Shown here: positions 6,548 to 46,810 of the stretch, in pieces | Numbering within the stretch: position 1 is the stretch's first letter | Layout: every line of letters begins with the position of its first letter | Source of the DNA: a virus | Lineage: Duplodnaviria; Caudoviricetes | Length of the DNA: 64,000 nucleotides | Direction: 5' to 3' (one strand) | IMG/VR virus record: IMGVR_UViG_3300021400_000143 | Location: 16,616 to 80,615 of that record | Translations under genes and position numbers: made by a program | Notes under the pieces: generated by a model | What the model was told of the DNA's origin: nothing | Database searches by the model: none | The model's input: the letters and a program-made list of their open reading frames with translations, nothing else

Positions 6548-9500
6548 TTAAATCATTTCTACTTTAACTGCCATGCCACTTGGGTTAGACCACCCTAATA
6601 AGATATTCTGAATAGCCATCTGAACGGCATAGGATTGCTGGAGTTGCAATAACATCTGCGCTTGAATACCCATTTGTATGTCGTTATCCATAGAAACCAC
6701 AGCGTTGCGGATTTCAGTCAATAATTGGCTGTGCAAGTACACTTGCTGGCTTACTCCGTTCATATAAGCCTCCAATGCTCCTGCTGTGTCCTCGGTTATG
6801 CCCTGAATCCCTTGTTGCAAGGCAGAGAGCTGCTTGTTTGCTTCACTTGATTGCGAGATAATGTCGAGCGCGTCGAGATTACCATAGAACTCGCCAAGTG
6901 CCGTATTGATTTGTTCTGCGGTAACACCAGCCATTTGAGCAAGTTGTCGAAGTTCGTTTATTGTTAAGGCATCACCCATTTCGCTTTCAGCACTTGTCAT
7001 TCTGTCCACTTCTTTGTAGAATGGATTCAACAAGGTTTCAACTATCTTACTCGTCATAGACTTCTTGATTAAGTTGAAGATTACCTCGTCCATCTTGTCT
7101 TGTATAGCATCAAGCGTTGTTTCTCCAGCTCTCCATGCTTCAACCCATGTGTCAACAAATTCCTCGGCGGCACTCTTTACGTCGCTACCAAGCAAGTTGT
7201 TTACGATTTCTTCTTTTGCGTCTTGGATTTCTTGCTTCAAGCTTTCAATGCTATCAAGATAGTCCTGTATGCGCTCTTTCTGCTCACGCTTATCAGAATT
7301 CTTCTTGTAGTCTTTCTGTTGTTCAAGTGCGAGCTGTCTTTCAAGTTCGGCAAGCTCTTGCTCTTTTACAGCAATAGACTCACGTTTGGCAACCGTTTCT
7401 TCCGTTCCAAGTGCTTTCTTTGCAGCGTATTCGAGTTTCTTGTAAGCCAATTCAAGTTCTTGCACTTTGAACTTGCTTTTCTCGATTTGTCTGTCAATTT
7501 TCTTGTTGTCGTTATCAAACCAAGTGCTAATTGCTTGCCATGCACCCTTGATTACGTTCACTGTGCCACCGATATAGTCACCAGAAGCAATCTGCGACAC
7601 ACCTTGTCCTGCCGTTGCAATACCCTCCATCGAAGTAGCAACATCGTTGAGTATTTCAGTCGTATCTTCATCACCACCGAGAGCGTCGAAGATTTCAGCA
7701 ACGGTGCGTACACCATCCGCTGCCTTTCGTGCTTCTTCGGCAATCAATTCAAGACCTTTCGCCCAATCTTTTTGTGTGTTCGTTCCTTTGTCACCAGTAA
7801 ACGCATTTTTGATTTTGGCAAATGCTGATTCAGACTTCCGTATCTCTTTGAAAACATTCTTGTATTCTTTGTTTAATCGCTCTGGTGTGAGTTCTACGGT
7901 AACATCACCCTCTGTAAGCGTGTACTTACCGTTGTTGTTCAAACCTCGCTTTTTCGCTTCATCAAGAACTCTTTTGTAGTTCTTTGCAAGACGATTAACA
8001 ACACCGTTACTATAATCGGTAATACTTTCAAACAACGCCTTGTAAGCAGGTAGTTCAGACAAGATTTGTTCTTTCAACTTAGAGATTGCTTGCTCTTGGT
8101 CTTGTATTTCAAGTTCAAGTAACGCTTTTTTTTCAGCGTTCTTTTCCTTTTCGGCTTGAATTTGCAAGTTTGTAAGCTTCTTTGTTTCAATGGCAATCTT
8201 TTCGTTAATATCGCCAAGCTTGTATTGTAGTTCTTGTGTTCTTTTAAGCGTGTCTTCTCTATCTTTCTTGCGGAGATTACGGATTTCTTTTGTTTGCTTT
8301 TCGATTTCCTTATAGTCTGCTTCCGTAATTAGACCTTTTGGTTTCTCTGATTCGGCTTTGTATGCTTTCAAATCATCGTCAGTAAGTTCGATTGTAGGAA
8401 GTCTAAAGTTTTTCTTTTGCTTCTCAAATGACTTGTTAAGCGCATCGGTAACTCTTGCAGCATATTCGTCAAGGTTTTGTGGTAGTTCGTTTGGGTCGAT
8501 GTCGAATATATCTGTAAAGATATTACCTAACTCTGGATTTGCATCGAGTTCTACAGCGAGTTCGTATTCATCTTTGATTTTAGAAAGTTCGTTATTTAAG
8601 CCGTCCGTAATACGCTTGTAGTCTATCTTTGTAATCTCGGTATTAAGGTTTGCAATGGCTTTTTCAAGAGCTTCTACGCCATTTGTGCTTGCTGATGCAC
8701 CACTTAATTGCTCTTTATAGAAATCACGGATTTTTTGAATTGGCATTGACGCGAGTTGAGAAGACGACAGCGTTTTAATACCATACTTTTGTAGAATGGC
8801 ATTATTACGAACAATACTTTTACCGTATTCGTTTGTAGCAAGTGTAAGTGCTTCTTGTGCGTCAACACCTGCTTGCTTGTATTCCTTGAATCTCTTTTGA
8901 ATATCGTTGATGTATTGAACCTCCTTGGAAATAGCTTCACCAAGTACATCTTTCTTTGATGTTTTTTCTTTGGTTTTCTTATTTAAAGACTCTAAGTCTG
9001 CACCAGCTTCTTTGGCAACTATTTGCGCTTTCTTAGCGGCTTCAATAGCTTTATCTAAGTCTTCTTTTAATCCAGTGCCTACATTTAGCTTTCTTCTTTG
9101 AACTTCAACCTCTTCAAGTTTATCTTTATAATCCTGTAGAGTTCGTTTTGCATACGACAATTCTGTGTCGTTTGTTTGAAAATCAAGTTTTACATCAATC
9201 TTGTTATTGTTAAACCAATCTTTCTGCCTTTTCTGCCATGCTTGCAAATCTTCCTCTGCACTTTGTTTTGACTCTTCTGATATTTCTATCGTTGTGCCAA
9301 ATTTTCTATTTAAAATTTGTCGAGCAAACTCTTTTTCAAACTGATTCCAGTTGTGCAAAGACGCTTCTTCGTTGATTGCAGCATTTAATTTAATAGTTCG
9401 TTGTTCAACAGGTATGTTGTTTATATCTACCTCTTTTGCAACACGCATTACTTGCTGTTCAAACTTTTTTGCAGCCACACCAGATGTATAGTAATAGTCT

Positions 9501-12500
9501 TGCACATCGGTAAGCATACTCGCGAATACCTCTTTGTTCTTAATGCTAAGTCTGTTAAGTGCTGCTTCTTGGTCTTTTTGTAAAAGAATAAAATTGTCGA
9601 TTGATTGAGTTCCACCAACAGGGACAACACTTTCTTTTTTTCCTATAAGTCCAAGCTCTTCATAAAGACTAACCATTCTCTGAAGATACTCTATGCGAGA
9701 TTCTCCGTCTTTTGGCTTTGCATCAAGTTCTTTTAGTATTTCAATATCTCGTGCGCTTGCTTTTCCTGTAGAGGCAAGCTCTTCCAACCCAACCTTGACT
9801 GCGTTAATGGATTCTGTTATTCTTGTGTATGTGTTTCTTGCTTCAGAACCAAACTCATTCATCCTTTCATTTAAGTCTGTTCCGATTGCTTTTTCAGAAA
9901 ATAATTGAGAAAAATTAACGTAGTCTTCTATAAGCTGTTTCGTTTCTTTTAGCTTTTGCTTAACATTGCTCTCATTTACATCTTCAAGGTTTATAGGAAT
10001 GGTAACTCCAAGCTCTGTTTGTGCAAGCTCAAGCATGTCACGTAGCTTCGTGAGTTGTGTTCCCAAATTGTCTGTTGATATAGCATTTGCGTATAGGTCT
10101 TCTACTTCTTTTCTTACTCCGCTATAAGCATTTGTAATTTCACCAAGTTTTTGCTTTGTTTCTTCACTTGTTTGGTTGAAAAGTACAAAATACGATGCAA
10201 TGGTAGCAATTGCTGTAACCCATGTGGTAAAAGGTATGCTTCTCATTGTTAGACCGAGAAGAGCTATGTTGCCTTGGGTTGTTCTAACTGTATTTGCAAG
10301 CCTAAGCCACGCAGGAATTGTGCTACTAACGGCTCTGCTTGCAGAAATACCAGCAACCATAGACGCTGTTTTGTAAGTGCCAATTGCAACAATTACAGTA
10401 GAAATAATCCTACTAAGTTCACGCCAATGCTTAAATAATACCGTAAGTCCTTTCAATCCAGTCGTCGTTACACCTTGACTATCTTTACCTATATCATTAA
10501 GCATGTTATTCCACGCAAGAGTTAGGTTTGCAAGACGGACTTTTAGTGTGTCAGCCATTTTTGCTTGGAAATCATAGAACTTGCCCCCTTCATCAGTCAT
10601 CTTGTTTACAACCTTCATCACATCGGCATAGTCGATTGCTTTCTTTTTCATGCGGTCGTAAACGTCGGCAGTACTTACCATCTTTCCTTCAAGTTCTGAA
10701 TAGTAATCTGCAAGCTGCTTTACAAGTGGTATGCCAGCGTTGGCAAACATACGTGCGTCGCGGCTATTAAGATAACCGTATGCTTTAATTTGTCCTAACG
10801 CATAAGTAAGACGTTCAACAGGAACACCAACCGCACTTGCCATATCAGCAAGCCTTCTTGTTGTATCTACAACATCTTTTGCAGCAATGTCGTATGCGGT
10901 AAGCTGTTTTGCTGCATTGGAAAGCTCAATAAGTGTGTATGGAGAAACCAACGACATTTGTGATAACTCGTTAAAGATACGAGTACCACGTGAAGCACTA
11001 TCCAAAAGAATACCTAATGCCTTTTCGTTCATTTCGTATTGCGAGCGTACTTCAATCAAATTCCTTACAAACTGCGTAGAAGCACCAACGGTAAAGTAAA
11101 AAGCAAGACGGTTTTTCATATAGTTCCATGAACGTGTAAGGGCATTATTGAGTTCAGAAGCTTTCTTTGTAGTACCCATGTACTTGTTCAAATCTGTGTT
11201 CAAACGATTGATTTCTGCATCAATCGTTTTTATTTCTGCGACTTGCTTCGGGTCGGTAAGGTTTATTCCACGTTTATAAGATTGCAACCTCTGTATTTTA
11301 TACGCTATATCATCAAGCGTCTTTTCAGGACCTTTTAATGCCGCGTCTAAGTTTATAGGTGTTGATAAATCCTTTCTTAATTGTTGAACATATCTTGACG
11401 TGGTTTGGAACTCTTCTTTCAACATCCTACCAAAATTGCTGTTTTGCATAGTAGGGGTAAGTCTATTCCACGTTTGTTGTAGCTGATTTAAATAGACATT
11501 TAGTCTTTGGATTTCTTGCGAAGAAGTTTTTACATCAGATACTCCAATGTTAAGCGTATTTGCCACCATTTTTTCAAATGGAGTGCCTATTGACGGTGTT
11601 TTGTATTGCTTACGCTTGATTTGCTCTTCTGTTATTTGACGCTCTATATTAAGCTGTTGCTGTGCTACACTTACAGTTCCTTGTGTTTCTATTTTAATTT
11701 TCTCTTCGTTCTCTCTTTGAACATCTTGTAAACGTGCAAGTTCTTTTTGATTTCTTAATAATTGTTCTTCGATACTAAATTTGCTATCATTATAAATAGC
11801 AAATGTTTTGTTTCCAACATCATAAGAAAAGATACCAGTTTTTCTAAATTCTTCGTTTTTACGTATAGCATCTGCCTGCCGACGAATTTCATCAGTATAT
11901 TTTTGTGCTGACGACGTCGCTGCTTCGTAACTTGTCGTTTGTTGTTGTAGTAATGATTTGCCAGATTTAAATTGCTCATTAAGTAGAGCGAGTTGAGGAT
12001 TGGTTTTTTGCAAGCTGTTCACGTAATTTTGCATGGTATGACCTTGTGGTGCGATAACATCACCCATCTGCTTGATACCTGTCTGTAAATTACGTATTTG
12101 TGGAATAAGATTGTGAACTTCCTGCTCGTATCTATGCACACCCTCTGTTGCAAATTGAAACAAACCTTTATCACCCGTGGTAGTTGCGTGTGCAGCCAAA
12201 GCAACGAATGATGAATATTGCTGTCTTGCCTCTCTCAATCTTTCTCTAAGCAAGTCGAGTTGAACATTCATCGTTTGCAACACATCAGCATTACGAATAG
12301 AACTTGAATCTCCGCTACGGACTGCAACTTGTTGCACTTTTGCAAGTTGGTCGTAAGCCATTGCAGTGTCTTTTACCGCTTTTGCTTCTTCTGTTTGCGC
12401 TTTCGCTCTCCTTGACGAACCACCATTGGCAGACCCACCCATATCTACCTTAATTTCACCAAGCTTGTTAAGTGTTTGTGTTATTTCTTGAACAGCACTT

Positions 12501-12622
12501 GTTGAATCTTTTTTCATTTTCTCCAACTGTGAGTTGAAGTGAGTAACAAGTGAATCTATTGAAGCTCTTAACTTATCATCGTCAAGTTGAGCTATAACAA
12601 CTGTTGGATTGAGATTTGACAT
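6548..12622 (-). CDS. Tail tape measure protein
   Basis: 2024 aa, helical; tape-measure domain (SPYTLIELSNAAKQL...LTYALGQIKAYG...NAGIPL); follows tube and chaperone genes. Confidence 0.92.
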   Translation of the reverse strand: MSNLNPTVVIAQLDDDKLRASIDSLVTHFNSQLEKMKKDSTSAVQEITQTLNKLGEIKVDMGGSANGGSSRRAKAQTEEAKAVKDTAMAYDQLAKVQQVAVRSGDSSSIRNADVLQTMNVQLDLLRERLREARQQYSSFVALAAHATTTGDKGLFQFATEGVHRYEQEVHNLIPQIRNLQTGIKQMGDVIAPQGHTMQNYVNSLQKTNPQLALLNEQFKSGKSLLQQQTTSYEAATSSAQKYTDEIRRQADAIRKNEEFRKTGIFSYDVGNKTFAIYNDSKFSIEEQLLRNQKELARLQDVQRENEEKIKIETQGTVSVAQQQLNIERQITEEQIKRKQYKTPSIGTPFEKMVANTLNIGVSDVKTSSQEIQRLNVYLNQLQQTWNRLTPTMQNSNFGRMLKEEFQTTSRYVQQLRKDLSTPINLDAALKGPEKTLDDIAYKIQRLQSYKRGINLTDPKQVAEIKTIDAEINRLNTDLNKYMGTTKKASELNNALTRSWNYMKNRLAFYFTVGASTQFVRNLIEVRSQYEMNEKALGILLDSASRGTRIFNELSQMSLVSPYTLIELSNAAKQLTAYDIAAKDVVDTTRRLADMASAVGVPVERLTYALGQIKAYGYLNSRDARMFANAGIPLVKQLADYYSELEGKMVSTADVYDRMKKKAIDYADVMKVVNKMTDEGGKFYDFQAKMADTLKVRLANLTLAWNNMLNDIGKDSQGVTTTGLKGLTVLFKHWRELSRIISTVIVAIGTYKTASMVAGISASRAVSSTIPAWLRLANTVRTTQGNIALLGLTMRSIPFTTWVTAIATIASYFVLFNQTSEETKQKLGEITNAYSGVRKEVEDLYANAISTDNLGTQLTKLRDMLELAQTELGVTIPINLEDVNESNVKQKLKETKQLIEDYVNFSQLFSEKAIGTDLNERMNEFGSEARNTYTRITESINAVKVGLEELASTGKASARDIEILKELDAKPKDGESRIEYLQRMVSLYEELGLIGKKESVVPVGGTQSIDNFILLQKDQEAALNRLSIKNKEVFASMLTDVQDYYYTSGVAAKKFEQQVMRVAKEVDINNIPVEQRTIKLNAAINEEASLHNWNQFEKEFARQILNRKFGTTIEISEESKQSAEEDLQAWQKRQKDWFNNNKIDVKLDFQTNDTELSYAKRTLQDYKDKLEEVEVQRRKLNVGTGLKEDLDKAIEAAKKAQIVAKEAGADLESLNKKTKEKTSKKDVLGEAISKEVQYINDIQKRFKEYKQAGVDAQEALTLATNEYGKSIVRNNAILQKYGIKTLSSSQLASMPIQKIRDFYKEQLSGASASTNGVEALEKAIANLNTEITKIDYKRITDGLNNELSKIKDEYELAVELDANPELGNIFTDIFDIDPNELPQNLDEYAARVTDALNKSFEKQKKNFRLPTIELTDDDLKAYKAESEKPKGLITEADYKEIEKQTKEIRNLRKKDREDTLKRTQELQYKLGDINEKIAIETKKLTNLQIQAEKEKNAEKKALLELEIQDQEQAISKLKEQILSELPAYKALFESITDYSNGVVNRLAKNYKRVLDEAKKRGLNNNGKYTLTEGDVTVELTPERLNKEYKNVFKEIRKSESAFAKIKNAFTGDKGTNTQKDWAKGLELIAEEARKAADGVRTVAEIFDALGGDEDTTEILNDVATSMEGIATAGQGVSQIASGDYIGGTVNVIKGAWQAISTWFDNDNKKIDRQIEKSKFKVQELELAYKKLEYAAKKALGTEETVAKRESIAVKEQELAELERQLALEQQKDYKKNSDKREQKERIQDYLDSIESLKQEIQDAKEEIVNNLLGSDVKSAAEEFVDTWVEAWRAGETTLDAIQDKMDEVIFNLIKKSMTSKIVETLLNPFYKEVDRMTSAESEMGDALTINELRQLAQMAGVTAEQINTALGEFYGNLDALDIISQSSEANKQLSALQQGIQGITEDTAGALEAYMNGVSQQVYLHSQLLTEIRNAVVSMDNDIQMGIQAQMLLQLQQSYAVQMAIQNILLGWSNPSGMAVKVEMI

Positions 12623-16002: not shown

Positions 16003-17280
16003 TTAGTCTGCCTGAGAAATGTCAACCACAACGTGATATTGGCTTTCGTTCAGCACGGTAGCGTAACGACCAATAACATCGGTGTGATAAGACTTCAACA
16101 TTCCGTTTGGTGTAATCTTGTTGATAACATACAGCATGTTCTGCACCTTTGCAAGAGAGAACTGAATACCGTTGTTTACCTCGCCAGACTGCATCAACTG
16201 AACGTCTGCTGGCTTTGCATGAACAACAACACCAGCGTAACCAAGAGGACGAAGAACAACGACGTTTTCTTTCCAACCTCTAACGGTGTGGTATGTTGTA
16301 ATACCCTGTACTTGCTGCTGCTCGCGAACAATGCGGATAGGTGAAATCTTGCTGATTGGTGAGCGAGAATACTGAACAAGCTGCTCCCAAGTAATGCTGT
16401 CAACAGAAGTGTTAGCATTACCATTGTTGATAACGATAACCTTGTCTGGAGCGTAGAGCTGGATGTAACGATTTACCTGCTCGATGAACTTAGCGTTCTT
16501 CAAGAGTACATTAACTACGGTGTCCCAAGGAATATCCCACTCAAATGGTGTATCGTCAGGAATGTAGTTTGCTTCCTTGAAATCCTGCTCAATCTTACGC
16601 ATCTGTTCAGGAATATCCGCGTTAGCATTAGACCAAGCAAGTGTGCCTGCCGTCTTGTAGTTTGCAAGTGGAATGTAAGGCTCTTGGTATGTAACAACAC
16701 CGCTAAAGCCGCGTGTAGTTGCTGTACCACCACCAATCTTTGTAAGGCTGATATTGTTACCATATTCACCACCACGAGAGAGTGTCATGGCTGCCATGTT
16801 GGAAAGACGGAGGTTGTGTGTCTTAACAAGGTCGGCAACACCACGAACGAAACCAACAACGAGATTCTGGTCTGTTCCAAGTTCCTGCAAACGTGCAGCG
16901 AGTTCGAGCTTAGACATGGAAGTTTCAAACAAGCCTTTACCATACTGGTAGATAGAGCCAGTCTTTTCTCCAAAGCCCTCAGCATCAAGCTGCATAGTTT
17001 CTGACAGAGGTGCCATTGCATCAGCCATAGGAACTGTGCGATTGATTTTCTGACGAACAGTCCAAGCTGGGTTCTTCTTCAAGTCGGAAATGTCAATATC
17101 GTACTCGTTACCCTCTACGGTAAAATGCTCCTGCCAAAAGAACGAGTTCTCTTCAATCTCGATTGTGTTGTCAATCAACGACTGCAAAAATCCTTGATTA
17201 GTGCCGTCAAGGAATCCTTTCTGATACAGCTTTTCAACCGCTTCTTCAGGAGTCCACTGATATTTAAGTGCATTAGCCAT
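16003..17280 (-). CDS. Major capsid protein
   Basis: 425 aa, strongly biased codon usage, between scaffold/decoration and connector genes. Confidence 0.75.
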   Translation of the reverse strand: MANALKYQWTPEEAVEKLYQKGFLDGTNQGFLQSLIDNTIEIEENSFFWQEHFTVEGNEYDIDISDLKKNPAWTVRQKINRTVPMADAMAPLSETMQLDAEGFGEKTGSIYQYGKGLFETSMSKLELAARLQELGTDQNLVVGFVRGVADLVKTHNLRLSNMAAMTLSRGGEYGNNISLTKIGGGTATTRGFSGVVTYQEPYIPLANYKTAGTLAWSNANADIPEQMRKIEQDFKEANYIPDDTPFEWDIPWDTVVNVLLKNAKFIEQVNRYIQLYAPDKVIVINNGNANTSVDSITWEQLVQYSRSPISKISPIRIVREQQQVQGITTYHTVRGWKENVVVLRPLGYAGVVVHAKPADVQLMQSGEVNNGIQFSLAKVQNMLYVINKITPNGMLKSYHTDVIGRYATVLNESQYHVVVDISQAD

Positions 17281-22122: not shown

Positions 22123-22560
22123 ATGGGAATTGTATTTGAAATAATTGCGCCTATTCTAACGCTCATTGCTGGAGGTGGTTGGTTTATAACCTATCGCGCA
22201 TACAAGCGTGGTGCTAATGGTGAAGCAACGCAGAAAGAAGCTGAAGGGTGGAAATCTATTCAAGATTTGTATCAACAAGCTATTGAAGATTTCAAAACTC
22301 ACAGCCATGATATGCGTCAAGAGCGTGCTGTATTAAAGCAAGAGAATAAGGAAATGCGAGATAAGTACAACCAGATTGTCGAGGAAATTCTTATATTAAA
22401 AAAGCAGTTATCACGACAGGGTAGGAAAATAGAAGCTCTAACACCTTTCTTATGTAGTATCATAGGTTGCAAAAAAAGACGAAGGGACAACCTCGATGCT
22501 TTTGCATCTGATAATAGTCAAGAAAGCGATGATGAAGACACCACTGAACAAGAAAACTAA
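22123..22560 (+). CDS. Holin-like membrane protein
   Basis: N-terminal TM helix followed by a coiled coil; precedes the endolysin candidate. Confidence 0.5.
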   Translation: MGIVFEIIAPILTLIAGGGWFITYRAYKRGANGEATQKEAEGWKSIQDLYQQAIEDFKTHSHDMRQERAVLKQENKEMRDKYNQIVEEILILKKQLSRQGRKIEALTPFLCSIIGCKKRRRDNLDAFASDNSQESDDEDTTEQEN

Positions 22561-22565
22561 AAGAT

Positions 22566-23009
22566 ATGGAACTTATATTAAAACGAATAGCAAGAAAGCC
22601 AACATACACGATTGGTAAACTATATGTAAACAAAAAGTATGTCTGCGACACGCTTGAAGATTACGATAGGATTTACTTTGGTGGCTCAAAGGTGGCTGGG
22701 AAAACAGCTATCCCATGCGGTCGGTATCAGGTTATTTTAAATAGCTATTCGCCTCGTTTTGGTGCGAAAGAACCATATAAATCGGTGTGTGGTGGTTGTG
22801 TGCCGTTGATTGCAAATGTACCTAAGTTTAGCGGTATCAGAATACACATCGGAAACACAGAAGCCGACACGGATGGATGCCCTCTCGTTGGGAAAAACAA
22901 ACAAGTTGGTCGCTTGGCTGATTCGAGAGTTACTTTCGTGTCTCTTATGAACGAATATCTTACACCAGCAAGAAAGCGTAATGAAAAAGTCTATATCACA
23001 ATCTATTAA
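22566..23009 (+). CDS. DUF5675-family protein, endolysin candidate
   Basis: TIGKL...CDTLED...TAIP.G.Y...IRIH.GN...TDGC.LVG signature. Confidence 0.75.
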   Translation: MELILKRIARKPTYTIGKLYVNKKYVCDTLEDYDRIYFGGSKVAGKTAIPCGRYQVILNSYSPRFGAKEPYKSVCGGCVPLIANVPKFSGIRIHIGNTEADTDGCPLVGKNKQVGRLADSRVTFVSLMNEYLTPARKRNEKVYITIY

Positions 23010-23013
23010 TGGT

Positions 23014-23436
23014 ATGAACGATTATCAGCATAACATAAAGAAACATTTCAAGTATTGCTTATTATTTTTTGCAATAATGATAGGACTTTGTGCGCTATGC
23101 TCGTGTTCACACAAGTCTATTGAATACGTGGATAGAGAAGTCGTAAAGTACAACACAAAAGAAGTGCATGATACAACGTATATAGATAGACATGATAGTA
23201 TATACCACACTATCTTTCAAAAAGGAGATACAATCTATGACACGAAGTATGTAGAGAAAGTAAGGTACAAAGACAGGATGGTGTATAAGTGCGACACGCT
23301 TACAAGAGACTCTATACAAATACAAGAAAAAACGATAGAAAAAGAAGTTACACCAAAATGGTGTTACTATTCTTTGGTTAGTTGGTTGATTATTATTATA
23401 TTTGCAACATTAAAAGTTAGGAAATGGCTACATTAG
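23014..23436 (+). CDS. Spanin-like lipoprotein with C-terminal TM helix
   Basis: Signal peptide with lipobox LCSC; C-terminal hydrophobic WCYYSLVSWLIIIIFATL. Confidence 0.6.
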   Translation: MNDYQHNIKKHFKYCLLFFAIMIGLCALCSCSHKSIEYVDREVVKYNTKEVHDTTYIDRHDSIYHTIFQKGDTIYDTKYVEKVRYKDRMVYKCDTLTRDSIQIQEKTIEKEVTPKWCYYSLVSWLIIIIFATLKVRKWLH

Positions 23437-36493: not shown

Positions 36494-36554
36494 AAAAATA
36501 TTGTGACAAAAATATTTTTGATTGTAAGTATTTGACACACAATCTTTTAATAAG

Positions 36555-36597
36555 AGCAATAAGAACTTAATATAGTTTCTTATTGCTTTTCTTTTTT
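36555..36597 (+). terminator. AT-rich hairpin plus T-run ending the structural operon; overlaps the next promoter
   Basis: AGCAATAAGAA / TTCTTATTGCT 11-bp stem, then TTTCTTTTTT. Confidence 0.55.
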
Positions 36598-36612
36598 ATT
36601 GTTGTAAATTTG
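36582..36612 (+). promoter_or_regulatory. Promoter ATTG-N19-TAAATTTG for the 36.7-40.0 kb cassette
   Basis: Perfect -7 box and near-consensus -33 box. Confidence 0.6.
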
Positions 36613-36669
36613 CGCCGTAGTGCTACACAAAATCCTTATTACTTCACTAATTTCTTAAAACTTAAACTT

Positions 36670-37617
36670 ATGGCAGAAATTTATCAGCTTCCAGAAAATG
36701 GAAACAACAATGGAGGGTTTGGTAACATTCCTTTCTCTATTCCTATCGGTGGTTTTGGTGGTGGCGGTCTGTTCGGTAATGGTAATTACGGCATGAACGG
36801 GATTGCTGACTTGTTTGGACTTGCTATCATTGCTTCAATGTTCGGCTGGAACGGTGGTGGATTTGGCAATGGAGGCTTTGGCGGAGGCAATTCAGGCGCG
36901 GCTTTCTTGGCTAATCAGCTCTCGAACGATTCTGGTCGTGAACTCATTATGAATGCTATTACCAATCAAGGTGAGGCATCTCGTACCGCTATCCAGACGT
37001 TAAGTACAATGCTCGGGCAAGACTTTAATCTTGTAAATGGTGCTGTGAATAACGTACAGAGCGCACTTAGCAACCTTGCTTTGCAGCAAGCTGTAAGTGT
37101 ACCACAGATTATCAACTCCATCCAGTCGGGTGACGCGAGCATTATCAGTGCGTTCCAGAAGTGTTGCTGCGACCAACAGCTTGCTACTTGTCAGCAAACG
37201 AACACCTTGCAAAATGCAATCAACGGCGTAGGTAATCAAGTACAAGCAAAAGCAGCCGCAGACCAGCTTGCAATGTGTCAGCAAACTTACGCTCTCACAG
37301 ACAACATGAATCGCAATTTCATTGCAATCGACAACAAACTTGATGCAATGGAGTCGAATCGAAAAGACCGTGAGATTACTGCTCTTACCGCAAAGGTTGC
37401 ACAGCTCGAATCGCAGAACTTTACTACGGGTGTTGTTCAGCAAGCTGTTTCTCCTATTCTCGGTCAGCTCGCAGGTATCCAGAATCAGGTTGACGACATC
37501 AAGAACAAACTTCCAAACACCGTTCCTGTTCAGTATCCTAACTTACAGGTAGTGAACTCTACACCTTACATGGGTGGTTTCTATGGAAATGGTTTTGGTG
37601 GTAACATCATATTGTAA
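36670..37617 (+). CDS. Gly-rich, hydrophobic-helix, coiled-coil protein with a CCC motif (uncharacterised)
   Basis: G/N/F-rich N-terminus, IADLFGLAIIASMFGW helix, QKCCCD, heptads. Confidence 0.8.
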   Translation: MAEIYQLPENGNNNGGFGNIPFSIPIGGFGGGGLFGNGNYGMNGIADLFGLAIIASMFGWNGGGFGNGGFGGGNSGAAFLANQLSNDSGRELIMNAITNQGEASRTAIQTLSTMLGQDFNLVNGAVNNVQSALSNLALQQAVSVPQIINSIQSGDASIISAFQKCCCDQQLATCQQTNTLQNAINGVGNQVQAKAAADQLAMCQQTYALTDNMNRNFIAIDNKLDAMESNRKDREITALTAKVAQLESQNFTTGVVQQAVSPILGQLAGIQNQVDDIKNKLPNTVPVQYPNLQVVNSTPYMGGFYGNGFGGNIIL

Positions 37618-37640
37618 TTTAAGGCATAGGAGGTAAAAGC

Positions 37641-37976
37641 ATGAATTGTAACGCAAACATAACAATAAATGCAGGAGGTCAGCCTTACATTGCAAACACA
37701 CAAGTCGTTGTAGGAACTGACACGGTTAATATTGCGCTCGGATGGAGACGTATTCAGCCGATAGGTTACTTTACTGTTCGTATGGAAAATGCAATTCCAG
37801 CAGATGCAACCGCAACGCTTCCAATCACACTTACTTTGAATGGTGTAACAAGAGCGTTGACTTTGCCAAATGGTGCAGCGGTTACGGTTGCTGACTTACT
37901 GGCTACGAATGTGTTCCTTGTATTCAACGATAGATTTAACGGGATACTCTCGTTAATGTCAAGAACGATTGTGTAA
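37641..37976 (+). CDS. Small all-beta hypothetical protein
   Basis: 111 aa, alternating hydrophobic pattern. Confidence 0.75.
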   Translation: MNCNANITINAGGQPYIANTQVVVGTDTVNIALGWRRIQPIGYFTVRMENAIPADATATLPITLTLNGVTRALTLPNGAAVTVADLLATNVFLVFNDRFNGILSLMSRTIV

Positions 37977-37998
37977 TCAACCAATAAAATTTACTAAC

Positions 37999-38535
37999 AT
38001 GGATTTCAATTCTTTAGGTAACGGCAATCCGTTTTATGTTCTTCGTAGAGGTGAAAAGCCTTTATTGGAAGTTGGTGTCGTAAAAGCGAAAAGTCAGCCA
38101 AGAGCAAAGTTTCCAACGCAGACGCCCAATATTGCTATGGGTATGCAAGTGCAACAAGTTATTGATGTAACTGCTACTATCAATGGCAAAGATGAAGTGT
38201 TTAACGATATACCAATAAATGTAGAAATTGCCGCAAGAGGTAACGACACGTTCAGTGGTAGTCGTGAAGCAATGTTGCAAGCTGTTGACGCTATGCTTCA
38301 AACGTCAAAGAAAGCCATCGACCAGATTCCTTATCACAAAAGCGTGATTTCAGAAAGCGAAAAGATGCTTGAAGTGCTGAACCCACAATATGCAGAGAAC
38401 AAGAAACAAGCGAGAACGATTCAAAACTTAGAAGAAAAGCAAAAGGCAACTGACGCAAGGATTGCAACGATTGAATCGCAAAACGCAGAAATGCTTTCTA
38501 TTCTTCGCTCGTTAAACGGTGGAGCTTCAACCTAA
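37999..38535 (+). CDS. Hypothetical protein, beta N-domain plus coiled coil
   Basis: Start MDFNSLGNG. Confidence 0.75.
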   Translation: MDFNSLGNGNPFYVLRRGEKPLLEVGVVKAKSQPRAKFPTQTPNIAMGMQVQQVIDVTATINGKDEVFNDIPINVEIAARGNDTFSGSREAMLQAVDAMLQTSKKAIDQIPYHKSVISESEKMLEVLNPQYAENKKQARTIQNLEEKQKATDARIATIESQNAEMLSILRSLNGGAST

Positions 38536-38570
38536 AGAATTTGAACCCACAAAAAGAAAGGACTTTACAA

Positions 38571-38807
38571 ATGGGTTATATTTTTGTAGATAAAGACAGC
38601 GATGGAGGTCAGTCTTCCATGCGTCAACAGATGCGCAGAAATATGAGAGGTGGTTATCGTTATGGTGGCACAAATCCGATGATGCGCGGAGATTACAACG
38701 AAGGCTATCGTCAGGGCTATAGGCACGGCTGGGAAGATAAAGAAGATGAATGGGAAGATGAAGAGCATTATCGTCGTCAGCGTGATAGCAGAGGAAGGTA
38801 TATTTAA
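38571..38807 (+). CDS. Low-complexity R/G/Y/D/E protein ending RRQRDSRGRYI
   Basis: Start MGYIFVDKD; highly charged and probably disordered. Confidence 0.7.
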   Translation: MGYIFVDKDSDGGQSSMRQQMRRNMRGGYRYGGTNPMMRGDYNEGYRQGYRHGWEDKEDEWEDEEHYRRQRDSRGRYI

Positions 38808-38882
38808 AATAAAGAAAGGGATTGGATTGGGTAGTCTTGTACTATTCAATCCTTTCTAATATTAAATAAATTAGAAAGAATT

Positions 38883-39281
38883 ATGAAACATTATATTTCA
38901 GAAGATAGAGCAATCTATGAGGATATGTATCATGGTTTGTTTAGCAAAAGACTTGCAGAGTGGGCTATTTCAAATATGGAAATGAAAGACCCAGCAACAA
39001 AAACCATGAAACGCATTGTTGTTAGAAAGGTAGATGATGTTCAAGAAGTGTTGAAAGAAAATGGTGTTGAGTTACCAAGTGAATTTGTTTATACAAGTTG
39101 GTATTTGTTTAATATGGCTGTTGCTGATTATCAAAAGACTTGCAAGACGGATGAACTACGTGCGACGTTCGTAGAGGAAACGCTTTGTGACCCTGATGGT
39201 ATGCCAGAGAACGTGCTGGATTGCTTTGTAACAAAGATGTGTAACGCAGGCATTCCTATCTATTGGGAAAGGTATCTATAA
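38883..39281 (+). CDS. Helical hypothetical protein
   Basis: 132 aa, HGLFSKRLAEWAISNM...GIPIYWE. Confidence 0.75.
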   Translation: MKHYISEDRAIYEDMYHGLFSKRLAEWAISNMEMKDPATKTMKRIVVRKVDDVQEVLKENGVELPSEFVYTSWYLFNMAVADYQKTCKTDELRATFVEETLCDPDGMPENVLDCFVTKMCNAGIPIYWERYL

Positions 39282-39298
39282 TATAATAAGTTTGTCGT

Positions 39299-39691
39299 AT
39301 GGAGACCAAGTATATTAACGTACCACCTAACAATAGGTGGGGTGTAATAGTTGTTTATAATTTCGACACAAATAGAGACGCTGTTGAACTTATAGCAATA
39401 ATGCGTTCGTTTGGTATGTCGTTGTTTAATGCGAAAAAAGCATTAGATGTATTATCGGACTACAATACAGGTATGGCACTTTCGTTAGACGATTTACGTA
39501 TGTCGGCTATATTTATTGGTAAGGCAACAAGTGCTGAACAATTTTGGGATTCCGTGAACCATGAACTTTATCATGTGAATACGTCTATCATTGATTATTA
39601 CAATGAGCCTTATAATGAAGAGGGTGCGGCTTATCTCCAAGGATGGCTGATGCAACAAGCGGTTTTGTTACTTGGTGAACCTTGCTATTAA
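39299..39691 (+). CDS. Putative zincin metallopeptidase
   Basis: HELYH (HExxH) with downstream EEGAAYL. Confidence 0.6.
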   Translation: METKYINVPPNNRWGVIVVYNFDTNRDAVELIAIMRSFGMSLFNAKKALDVLSDYNTGMALSLDDLRMSAIFIGKATSAEQFWDSVNHELYHVNTSIIDYYNEPYNEEGAAYLQGWLMQQAVLLLGEPCY

Positions 39692-39718
39692 CAACAATAA
39701 TACATACAAAGAAAGATT

Positions 39719-40042
39719 ATGGAAAGAGAAAAACTTTTGCAAGAATATGAGACTACGCTTAATAGTCTCATAGAAAAAACTCGATTTGTGTATTCAGAAG
39801 AATTTTACAAACTTGACGAGTTTGAGAAGCAGAAATACACAAAAGACAAGATGGCAACAGAAGGACACCTTAACACATTAAGCACTTTGTTATGGGCAAA
39901 AGTTCCTCAACTAAGTAGCGTGACCGATTTGTTTGCGCTTGGTATTCTTGGCTCGATGTTTGGTAATAACTGGAGCAATCCATCTATGCTTAATGCACCA
40001 AAATTAGAAGGGGAAAAACTCGAAGAAGTTAAAATCGAATAA
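39719..40042 (+). CDS. Helical hypothetical protein
   Basis: 107-aa ORF, last of the rightward block. Confidence 0.65.
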   Translation: MEREKLLQEYETTLNSLIEKTRFVYSEEFYKLDEFEKQKYTKDKMATEGHLNTLSTLLWAKVPQLSSVTDLFALGILGSMFGNNWSNPSMLNAPKLEGEKLEEVKIE

Positions 40043-40046
40043 AATT

Positions 40047-40115
40047 CGTTTTAAGCACGTTTAAATTCAAAGGTAATAACTTGTACTATTCGATAGATAG
40101 AAGCCGTTACAACGC
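40047..40115 (-). repeat. Dispersed ~70-nt structured element, copy 2 (diverged)
   Basis: Minus strand GCGTTGTAA...ATAGTACAAGTTATTAC...CTTAAAACG. Confidence 0.65.
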
Positions 40116-41217: not shown

Positions 41218-41778
41218 TTATAATTCTTCTATGATAAAGCGAAACGTGTTTTTGTTTTTCTTTTGCTCTGATTTTGCCCAAGAGAGGGTTGAAAGCGGTA
41301 TGTTTAATTTTTTAGAAGCCGCTGTTAATGATGGAAATATCTCATTATACAAACCGTCTCTTGATGAAATCAAAACTTTTAAAGTGTTTTTACCAACAGT
41401 ATTCGGGTTGTTTACGTTTTCAAGTCTTGTTGCCCACCTAAGATTAGTAACCAAATTATTTACTTTATCTCCATCTATATGGTCAACTTCTTTTTTACCA
41501 TGAATATTTGGAAGAAAAGCTTCTGCAACCAATCTATGAATATACTTTTCTTTTGATGTTTTTTTATTTCCATTACTTAAACATACAAATAAATACTTAT
41601 TATCCTTTACTCTTGGTTTTAAAATTTTTTCTTCGCACATTACTGTGCAAAAACCACGGGTGACTTTATGTGACAAAACTTTTACTCTTCCATAATTGCT
41701 AACTTGGTAATAACCTTTATAGCCAGCAATATCTCGCCAAACCTCGTTAGTCATATCAAAAGTTTTTTCTTCTTCCAT
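41218..41778 (-). CDS. NUMOD4-HNH homing endonuclease
   Basis: EVWRDIAGYKGYYQVSNYGRV, HRLVAEAF, VDHIDGDKVNN...NLRW. Confidence 0.9.
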   Translation of the reverse strand: MEEEKTFDMTNEVWRDIAGYKGYYQVSNYGRVKVLSHKVTRGFCTVMCEEKILKPRVKDNKYLFVCLSNGNKKTSKEKYIHRLVAEAFLPNIHGKKEVDHIDGDKVNNLVTNLRWATRLENVNNPNTVGKNTLKVLISSRDGLYNEIFPSLTAASKKLNIPLSTLSWAKSEQKKNKNTFRFIIEEL

Positions 41779-46687: not shown

Positions 46688-46810
46688 TGAGTGGTGTGGG
46701 ACTCGAACCCTTCTAAATGACAAATCCTTGTTACTTCACTTTAATCAATCATTATGGCAAAAAAGAGTTGAGTGCTTTATTTCCTGTGACGCGCACAACG
46801 TCCACCACTC
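46688..46810 (-). ncRNA. Non-canonical tRNA-like element
   Basis: GAGTGGTG/CACCACTC closing stem and GGGTTCGAGTCCC T-loop; ~122 nt, no canonical anticodon arm. Confidence 0.4.

Follow-up and report, generated by a model that had tools for sequence, protein, structure and literature searches.

A gene cassette recurrent in Bacteroidales phages and its possible role as an accessory fibre-like assembly

Background

Multi-gene tail-fibre modules that include dedicated assembly factors, such as those of T4 (gp34-38 with gp57A), lambda (Stf/Tfa), P2 (H/G) and Mu (S/U), move between unrelated phages. In this work we analyse a cassette of seven co-oriented genes, g1-g7 (positions 36670-40042, plus strand), which lies in a 64,000-nucleotide stretch of DNA from a virus of the class Caudoviricetes (hereafter the window, corresponding to bases 16616-80615 of the 80,615-bp virus record IMGVR_UViG_3300021400_000143), and we consider whether it could encode an accessory fibre of its own. 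For individual fibre proteins some structural information is available. The bead of the Pa193 tail fibre gp47 (PDB 9b45 chain 2, bead III) consists of four-stranded sheets in a trimeric fibre (PMC11456595), and the head fibres gp21 and gp29 of crAss001 are single proteins of 97 and 118 amino acids (aa), which occur in some crassvirus groups only (PMC10172136).

Few accessory gene sets are shared as widely among the Bacteroidales phages of gut and rumen as this cassette: we found it in more than 100 viral contigs and at about 60 loci of genome assemblies, in crAss-like families, and in prophages of cultured isolates of Bacteroides, Parabacteroides and Paraprevotella, and its six protein families are all uncharacterised. 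Should its product be an accessory fibre, phages would have in it a portable device for attachment that bears on the host range and persistence of crAss-like and other abundant gut phages; otherwise the product would be a phage-built structure of a new kind, and there is a real chance that the cassette is without precedent. What is new here is the kinship of g2 to fibres, the long-fibre variant of the unit, the folds of g2 and g3, the gene fusions, a conserved hairpin, a lysis set separate from the cassette, and the core status of the cassette in one phage lineage.

Results and discussion

Gene order, carriers and mobility

Each of the six open reading frames (ORFs) that a sequence-only reading of the window, made without database searches, had joined into a cassette was found in its place on the plus strand, and g7 is a seventh member of the unit. 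The genes are real, and their order is conserved across 80 viral contigs and about 60 genome loci. Relatives of g1 were detected in 111 IMG/VR stretches, 28 GenBank phage records and 62 genome loci. Gene order in IMG/VR was examined in the 80 loci fetched from these 111 stretches, and the order g1-g2-g3-(g4)-g5-g6 is kept in them. According to tblastn, g1 is present in all 80 loci, g2 in 78, g3 in 73, g6 in 66, g5 in 62 and g4 in 41; where g4 gave no match, its slot holds a small ORF rich in R, G and Y, with an MGY start and a GRY end. The last gene, g7, is variable and often absent (found in 8 of the 80 loci).

Genomes chosen as species representatives keep the same gene order at about 60 loci; almost all are Bacteroidales, and the isolates that carry the cassette include Paraprevotella xylaniphila, Bacteroides sp. 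ET71, Parabacteroides segnis and P. leei. The neighbourhood survey (80 contigs and about 60 loci, crAss-like phages included) thus bears out the earlier suggestion that this gene order recurs in phages of Bacteroidales. The analogues that had also been suggested for phages of Firmicutes are not supported: all that speaks for them is that some contigs, which are short or of the size of a phage, bear labels of metagenome-assembled genomes (Clostridiales, Bacilli, Treponema, Synergistales), and such labels are no evidence of the host.

The carriers comprise crAss-like podoviruses, long-tailed phages and prophages. The crAss-like carriers are found in the Suoliviridae and Steigviridae, and the cassette is also present in the cultured phage C3_41T2LP, which makes its function directly testable. 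Profile searches recovered g1, g2, g3 and g5 in the crAss-like cr272_1, g1, g3 and g6 in the crAss-like cr116_1, and g1, g2, a weak g3 and a longer protein with the g5 domain in both cr109_1 and cr4_1; C3_41T2LP, whose cassette proteins are WLZ21182.1 to WLZ21177.1, yielded g1, g3, g5 and g6, and in crAss001 these searches did not find the cassette. Among the complete genomes of the large terminase (TerL) lineage to which the phage of the window belongs, the cassette is present in 5 of the 5 tested, in addition to this phage, and it is core in the lineage. In this lineage it comes after the tail-fibre genes, and these upstream genes are not conserved across the 80 loci.

In six contigs (L008, L019, L030, L041, L050 and L051) a gene for an HNH homing endonuclease is inserted between g2 and g3. 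Together with the orientation of the cassette in C3_41T2LP, which is discussed below, these insertions indicate that the unit is mobile and independent of orientation. The window itself encodes a homing endonuclease of the NUMOD/HNH type (41218-41778, minus strand), whose homologues are the opposite-strand inserts between g2 and g3 in the same six contigs. Two further loci depart from the common layout. An extra gene of about 380 aa, in which a repeat of the peptidoglycan-binding type can be recognised by eye, lies between g4 and g5 at L071:7776-8928. In the Logan contig ERR14020350_20581 (L150) every gene has many in-frame TAG codons, with TAG read as Gln; g2 and g3 form one 280-aa reading frame there, followed by g4, g5, g6 and an endolysin of the Peptidase_M15_3 family.

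Database searches said little about function. The proteins g1, g2, g3 and g5 match PHROGs of function not known (phrog_16490 for g1 and phrog_28898 for g3). In the Pfam search of the window proteins g5 is the one cassette protein that matches a family, NCBIfam returned nothing for the cassette, and PADLOC gave chance-level matches only, for g5 and g6 (E 0.0056 and 0.046). Profile searches of PDB sequences with g1, g5 and g6 found nothing below E 0.1, a nucleotide search of the cassette against GenBank phages gave zero matches, and a search of the literature on DUF7841, the PHROG numbers, C3_41T2LP and the virion proteomes of Bacteroides phages found nothing. The earlier remark that no functional characterisation was known therefore agrees with Pfam, PHROGs, NCBIfam, PADLOC, the PDB sequences and the literature alike. 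Reading of the sequences of g1-g7 also revealed neither a signal peptide nor a lipobox in any of them.

The g2 protein and its kinship to phage fibres

The product of g2 (111 aa, 37641-37976) is a compact beta domain and the most conserved protein of the cassette, with a mean column identity of 63% (alignment A3) and, frequently, a CxCxC motif at its N-terminus. The AlphaFold2 model is all-beta (pLDDT 89.6, pTM 0.80). Its best match among solved structures is to residues 227-336 of the Pa193 tail fibre gp47, with 96 of the 111 residues aligned at a root-mean-square deviation of 4.7 A and 12% identity; this similarity is weak (Z 4.8, the next row being 2.8), with 29 of 48,161 solved chains reaching Z >=2, and the best Foldseek match of g2 in the PDB has an E value of 0.2. 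In BFVD the model matches small proteins from myo-, sipho-, podo- and crAss-like viruses of the gut. It also matches domains that form part of many predicted proteins whose annotation is tail fibre, receptor-binding, collagen-like or hyaluronidase (E 1e-3 to 1e-4, TM 0.5-0.59).

At the sequence level, the comparison of the g2 alignment by hhalign with the C-terminus of P0002, a protein of 640 aa with repeated fibre-like motifs, gave a probability of 99.6% and an E value of 5.5e-24 over 70 columns, which correspond to the C-terminal two-thirds of g2. P0002 has no match in Pfam, and we call it a fibre on account of its repeats and its length. On its contig, from the ENA sample ERZ27257205, P0002 precedes genes of 159 and 68 aa and then a DUF7841 gene, in the pattern of g3, g4 and g5, which suggests that the slot of g2 is held there by a long fibre; a neighbouring gene of 261 aa is a candidate g1. 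Within the window, g2 has a weak match (33%, E 4e-4) to a fibre-like protein of 372 aa. Embedded forms of g2 are rare at the sequence level, since the 216 clusters of g2 relatives in a library of representatives consist almost entirely of free-standing proteins about 110 aa long, and only two longer proteins containing g2 were found.

The g1 and g7 proteins

The first gene, g1 (315 aa, 36670-37617), codes for a protein in which a low-complexity N-terminus rich in G, N and F is followed by a hydrophobic stretch and a nearly invariant block at about residues 85-125 (alignment A2). Next come a Cys triplet (residues 165-167) and a helical middle of variable sequence, and the C-terminus is formed by another conserved block that bears a Gly/aromatic tail. 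Of the three cysteines, C167 is invariant, and C165 and C166 are present in at least 90% of the sequences. The helical middle exists in at least two alternative versions and the ends are conserved, as in fibre proteins; no association was found between the type of the middle and the length of the g3 tail. The C-terminal residue is Phe in most homologues and Leu in the g1 of the window.

The hydrophobic stretch has 13-16 residues, contains an Asp, and has neither Lys nor Arg on its flanks. It is not a canonical membrane anchor, being too short and devoid of flanking positive charges. The likening of the lead protein to a membrane-inserting coiled coil, which the sequence-only reading had put forward, is therefore not upheld: the segment is too short, and no cassette protein carries a secretion signal. 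The same hydrophobic motif recurs in g7 (107 aa, 39719-40042), where a helical N-terminus precedes a copy of it, DLFxLGIxxSMFG, and the g1 profile matches homologues of g7 at E values of 2e-6 and 7e-5.

Searches of the ESM Atlas with g1 returned unnamed viral clusters only, and a complex prediction with three copies of g1 residues 100-315 and three of g2 scored 0.00, which speaks neither for nor against binding. Several roles for g1 were considered and abandoned. An antiparallel helical hairpin with the cysteines at its tip would be expected to leave a long ladder of covariation, and a mutual-information scan of 126 sequences gave local block signals and no such ladder. A tape measure is disfavoured by the phage having its own tape measure of 2024 aa, phrog_16490 being the only family that g1 matched. 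Finally, a scaffold or a major capsid protein does not agree with a cassette that crosses unrelated head genes and is absent from crAss001.

The remaining proteins and gene fusions

The start codons of g3 (178 aa, 37999-38535) and g4 (78 aa, 38571-38807) are likely the ATGs at 37999 and 38571, because the homologues begin there. In the AlphaFold2 model of g3 (alignment A4, pLDDT 85.4), an SH3-like barrel (residues 1-88) is followed by a helical hairpin and a 44-residue C-terminal helix. The matches of this fold are generic (domain I of EF-P, Tudor and chromo domains, with Z up to 6.4, within the range of noise), and Foldseek found none in the PDB at E <=0.001. The models of g2 and g3 confirm the secondary-structure classes that had been assigned to the two proteins by eye, all-beta and beta with coil. 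The product of g4 is rich in R, G, Y, D and E and disordered, with a conserved MGYI start and GRY end (GRYI in the window). In clusters 6, 10 and 18 both ends are shared and the sequence between them differs, and some homologues contain long GGY/RGG tracts.

The helical protein g5 (132 aa, 38883-39281; alignment A5) matches the Pfam family PF25223 (DUF7841) with 43.3 bits against a cut-off of 25.2 (E 4.9e-11), over profile positions 7-113 of 114; the ESM Atlas gave no usable match for it. The product of g6 (130 aa, 39299-39691), with the motif HELYH, is a minimal zincin-like protein. Among its 53 aligned sequences (alignment A1) the residues W14, H88, E89, H92, E108, A111 and G115 are invariant, which gives the pattern HExxH-x15-E, with E108 as the presumable third ligand, and by this motif we consider g6 a putative peptidase. 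No Pfam match was obtained for g6 at E 0.1, and the best PDB profile matches (E 0.16-0.35) cover the motif only. Of its 53 homologues, 2-4 have weak matches to SprT-like, M78 and DUF6782 families. The g6 homologue of C3_41T2LP is annotated as a PolyVal metallopeptidase; the corresponding family PF18818 (MPTase-PolyVal) found nothing in the genome analysed here even at E 10.

Three fusions tie the parts of the cassette together: g2 with g3 in P0001, from a phage recoded for TAG as Gln; the g2 fold with DUF7841 in a protein of a crAss-like virus (BFVD A0A8S5LXP6); and a g4-like sequence with g5 in P0003.

Regulatory elements and expression

Upstream of the cassette, an A/U-rich, terminator-like hairpin with a U-run (36552-36600, plus strand; -16.1 kcal/mol, z -3.63) would end the preceding unit, and none of 200 shuffled sequences (0/200) folds as well. 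It is followed by a candidate for the Bacteroidetes-type -7 box, TAAATTTG (36605-36612, plus strand), identified by a pattern match about 58 nt 5' of the g1 start. The motif was found 95 times in the window against 80.6 expected, which is no clear enrichment, so that it is its position that argues for a promoter; generic scans for sigma-70 promoters and for terminators were at chance level. That the cassette is insulated and has a promoter of its own, as had been claimed, is thus plausible in view of the hairpin with its U-run and the box, whereas neither the frequency of the motif nor the generic scans add to the case. In many related loci (clusters 5, 20, 22 and 32) a small helix-turn-helix (HTH) gene lies about 100 bp 5' of g1.

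A second hairpin (38818-38856, plus strand; -17 kcal/mol), a candidate attenuator or terminator, occupies the gap between g4 and g5, and the terminator scan also picks it, at 38824-38852. A hairpin of -14.5 to -25 kcal/mol is found in this gap in 38 of the 38 related loci listed; the sequences differ among loci and the structure is kept, often with a T-rich tail. Its conservation argues that the output of g1-g4 is higher than that of g5-g6. In one small gut metatranscriptome, contigs with 100% identity to a 10-kb stretch lie solely at 37405-37710, 37933-38121, 38237-38531 and 38550-38774; they span the end of g1 through g4, bridging g1-g2 and g2-g3, and as such contigs cannot rank expression they are a weak hint only. 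The tail-fibre genes, g5-g6 and the early genes are uncovered in that data set, where absence proves nothing.

A tRNA-shaped RNA encoded elsewhere in the window (46689-46810, minus strand) contains an insert that matches the 5' leader of g1 in antisense at 18 of 19 positions (36630-36648 versus 46722-46740), and a second short match can be seen by eye at the region of the g1 start codon. Only 7 of 2542 background windows score as high, some of them being self-overlaps. This RNA may be an antisense regulator of the cassette.

The phage and its genome

The source record is a complete genome of 80,615 bp with 107-bp direct terminal repeats. The closest cultured relative of the phage is the Bacteroides phage C3_41T2LP, whose host is Bacteroides uniformis, with a terminase identity of 53%. 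The cassette stands at the end of a plus-strand arm (18748-40042) that contains the large terminase, the portal and a small lysis set and then a tail protein of 2356 aa; fibre-like proteins of 372, 364 and 964 aa and three small ORFs come between this tail protein and the cassette. The tape measure gene (6548-12622, minus strand; 2024 aa, phrog_9959, E 8e-64) identifies the virus as a long-tailed phage. The likeliest candidate for the major capsid gene is an ORF of 425 aa (16003-17280, minus strand) without a match in Pfam or PHROGs, which suggests that the head genes of the lineage are very divergent.

The lysis set (22123-23436) lies directly 3' of the portal gene, 13 kb from the cassette. 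It consists of a holin- or LysB-like gene with one N-terminal transmembrane helix (22123-22560, plus strand), an endolysin-like gene (22566-23009, plus strand), whose product has 59% identity to an L,D-carboxypeptidase-like cluster adjoining cassettes elsewhere, and a gene for a unimolecular-spanin-like protein with a lipobox-type signal and a C-terminal transmembrane helix (22981-23436, plus strand). A copy of a two-stem element of about 70 nt (40047-40115) comes directly after the stop codon of g7, at the convergence with the early genes of the minus strand.

Possible functions of the cassette

We tentatively propose, without claiming an even chance for it, that the cassette specifies an accessory fibre or spike assembly together with low-level maturation factors, and its product, we think, is most likely an accessory appendage, which would exit the cell attached to the virion or together with it. 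The proposal draws on the fibre domain of g2 and the variant cassette with a long fibre, on the rod-like layout of g1 and the mosaic nature of its middle, on the gene fusions, and on the division into abundant products and products made at a low level. In particular, the fibre domain of g2 and the separate lysis set point more towards a fibre-like assembly than towards the envelope-modifying or non-virion role envisaged in the sequence-only reading. The cassette would be an autonomous operon that moves horizontally among phages, and its product would be built in the cytoplasm of the infected Bacteroidales cell, with which the lack of secretion signals in g1-g7 agrees. We imagine g1 as an elongated helical rod with sticky Gly/aromatic ends, g2 as a tail-fibre bead domain that in some variants has grown to a fibre of 640 aa, and g3 and g4 as their stoichiometric partners. 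The hairpin 3' of g4 would lower the expression of g5 and g6, both of which may help, at low copy number, with assembly or maturation, g6 possibly by cleaving a partner protein. Together, the cassette proteins would form one complex located on the virion, and the appendage would bind a conserved ligand, be it on the surface of the host or within the gut matrix.

A number of points weigh against this proposal. The presence of g1-g4 on the virion is something that we infer. The solved match of g2 is weak (Z 4.8), and the PDB chain in question is an AlphaFold model fitted into density; moreover, with 63% column identity g2 is too conserved for a typical receptor-binding tip. The true tail-fibre genes upstream are not conserved at the same loci, and since the unit crosses unrelated virion types, every one of these would have to offer the same docking site. 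Many loci have their own HTH gene and promoter region, and in C3_41T2LP the cassette follows an HTH gene and an HNH gene and runs in the direction of the recombination genes, not of the tail genes. Finally, we know of no described fibre module with Gly/Phe and Arg/Gly/Tyr low-complexity parts or with a zincin.

Other explanations were also considered. It is conceivable, though we think it unlikely, that the cassette is a late module acting on the envelope, in which g1 and g7 insert hydrophobic Gly-rich segments into host membranes around lysis and the other proteins regulate or prime them, be it as a lysis accessory, in the disruption of the outer membrane or in superinfection exclusion. The hydrophobic, glycine-zipper-like motif common to g1 and g7 would then find its role, g1 has a layout reminiscent of fusion proteins (hydrophobic Gly-rich peptide, long helices, Cys cluster and, mostly, a C-terminal Phe), and in crAss-like genomes and many contigs the cassette adjoins genes for holins, endolysins or spanin-like proteins. 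However, a Sec-type anchor would require a longer hydrophobic segment than these 13-16 residues, which include an Asp and are not flanked by positive charges; the cassette proteins lack a signal peptide or lipobox, the phage already has a complete lysis set 13 kb away, and it is hard to see what the tail-fibre domain of g2 would do in such a module. The missing secretion signals would also agree with an assembly that stays in or on the cell, for which we see a somewhat slimmer chance: g1, as a rod similar to intermediate filaments, and g4, as a protein of the phase-separating type, would make a filament network or a condensate that organises replication or assembly, with g2, g3 and g5 as clients or adaptors and the g6 zincin dissolving or maturing the structure. 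Such a device would be portable and could serve podo-, sipho- and myoviruses alike, in agreement with the independence of the cassette from virion type and its own regulator; the operon design suggests high expression of g1-g4, and the composition of g1 and g4 is suitable, including the GGY/RGG tracts of some g4 homologues. On the other hand, composition is all that suggests filaments or condensates, which makes for weak evidence, a structure of this kind has no known precedent in phages of this size, and the kinship of g2 to a fibre-like protein would go unexplained.

The fibre domain of g2 poses the same difficulty if g1-g4 are pilot or ejection proteins that are loaded in the particle and exit with the DNA, g1 then inserting itself into the envelope of the host and the zincin having the cell wall or the cargo as its target, a scenario that strikes us as improbable. 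T5 pb2, a fusogenic tape measure that bears a peptidase, offers a loose parallel, and the hydrophobic Gly-rich segment and long helices of g1, the Arg-rich disordered g4, the zincin motif of g6, the extra gene with a peptidoglycan-binding-like repeat (seen by eye) in L071 and the PolyVal metallopeptidase annotation of the C3_41T2LP homologue of g6 could all be interpreted in these terms. Nonetheless, PF18818 matches nothing in this genome at E 10, the phage possesses its own tape measure of 2024 aa, and capsids that are unrelated to each other would all need to recognise the packaging signals. Least probable of all, in our opinion, is a non-structural moron that serves in anti-defence or host takeover. 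The mobility of the unit, its own regulator and its location at the junction of early and late genes in either orientation would be in keeping with a moron, but six conserved, structural-looking genes are unlike known anti-defence genes, neither PADLOC nor other searches gave a defence match, and the cassette is core in this lineage.

Comparison with known systems

Parts of the cassette resemble several described systems to different degrees. With the minimal zincins (ImmA/IrrE of M78, SprT-like proteins and MPTase-PolyVal) g6 shares the HExxH motif and an invariant downstream Glu, but the g6 of the window reaches no family, and the spacing to the Glu is 15 residues only. With the spanins (Rz/Rz1, T1 gp11) and class I fusion proteins g1 shares a hydrophobic Gly-rich segment, long helices and conserved Cys residues, and like spanin genes the cassette is often found near lysis genes. 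However, g1 has neither a signal-anchor nor a lipobox, nothing in spanin systems corresponds to the five further conserved genes, and a spanin-like protein that has both a lipobox and a C-terminal transmembrane helix is already present in the phage and in its relatives.

The crAss001 head fibres gp21 and gp29 are, as the products of the cassette may be, small accessory fibre proteins of Bacteroides phages, and gp29 is encoded among lysis genes, roughly where cr116_1, a member of the same family, has the cassette. The two are nevertheless different, as the hhalign probability between g2 and gp29 is 0.08% and crAss001 has no cassette. In cr116_1 there is also an ORF of 65 aa (L085:3898-4095) between the holin and the endolysin, 1.7 kb from the cassette, that resembles the N-terminal, capsid-binding part of gp29 (44% over 34 residues, pairwise E 2e-4) and lacks the distal Ig-like domain. 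From the bead of Pa193 gp47 g2 differs in being a free-standing protein of 111 aa.

A further comparison is with the tail-fibre modules of T4, lambda, P2 and Mu. The cassette proteins have no sequence relation to the proteins of these modules, the conserved part of g2 is its C-terminal domain, which is highly conserved rather than hypervariable, and the cassette has a regulator of its own, a candidate internal attenuator, low-complexity proteins and a zincin. On the other hand, the proposed co-transcription of rod and bead genes with helpers made at a low level, the putative bead domain of g2, the mosaic middle of g1 and the horizontal transfer across morphotypes are features that the cassette has in common with these modules.

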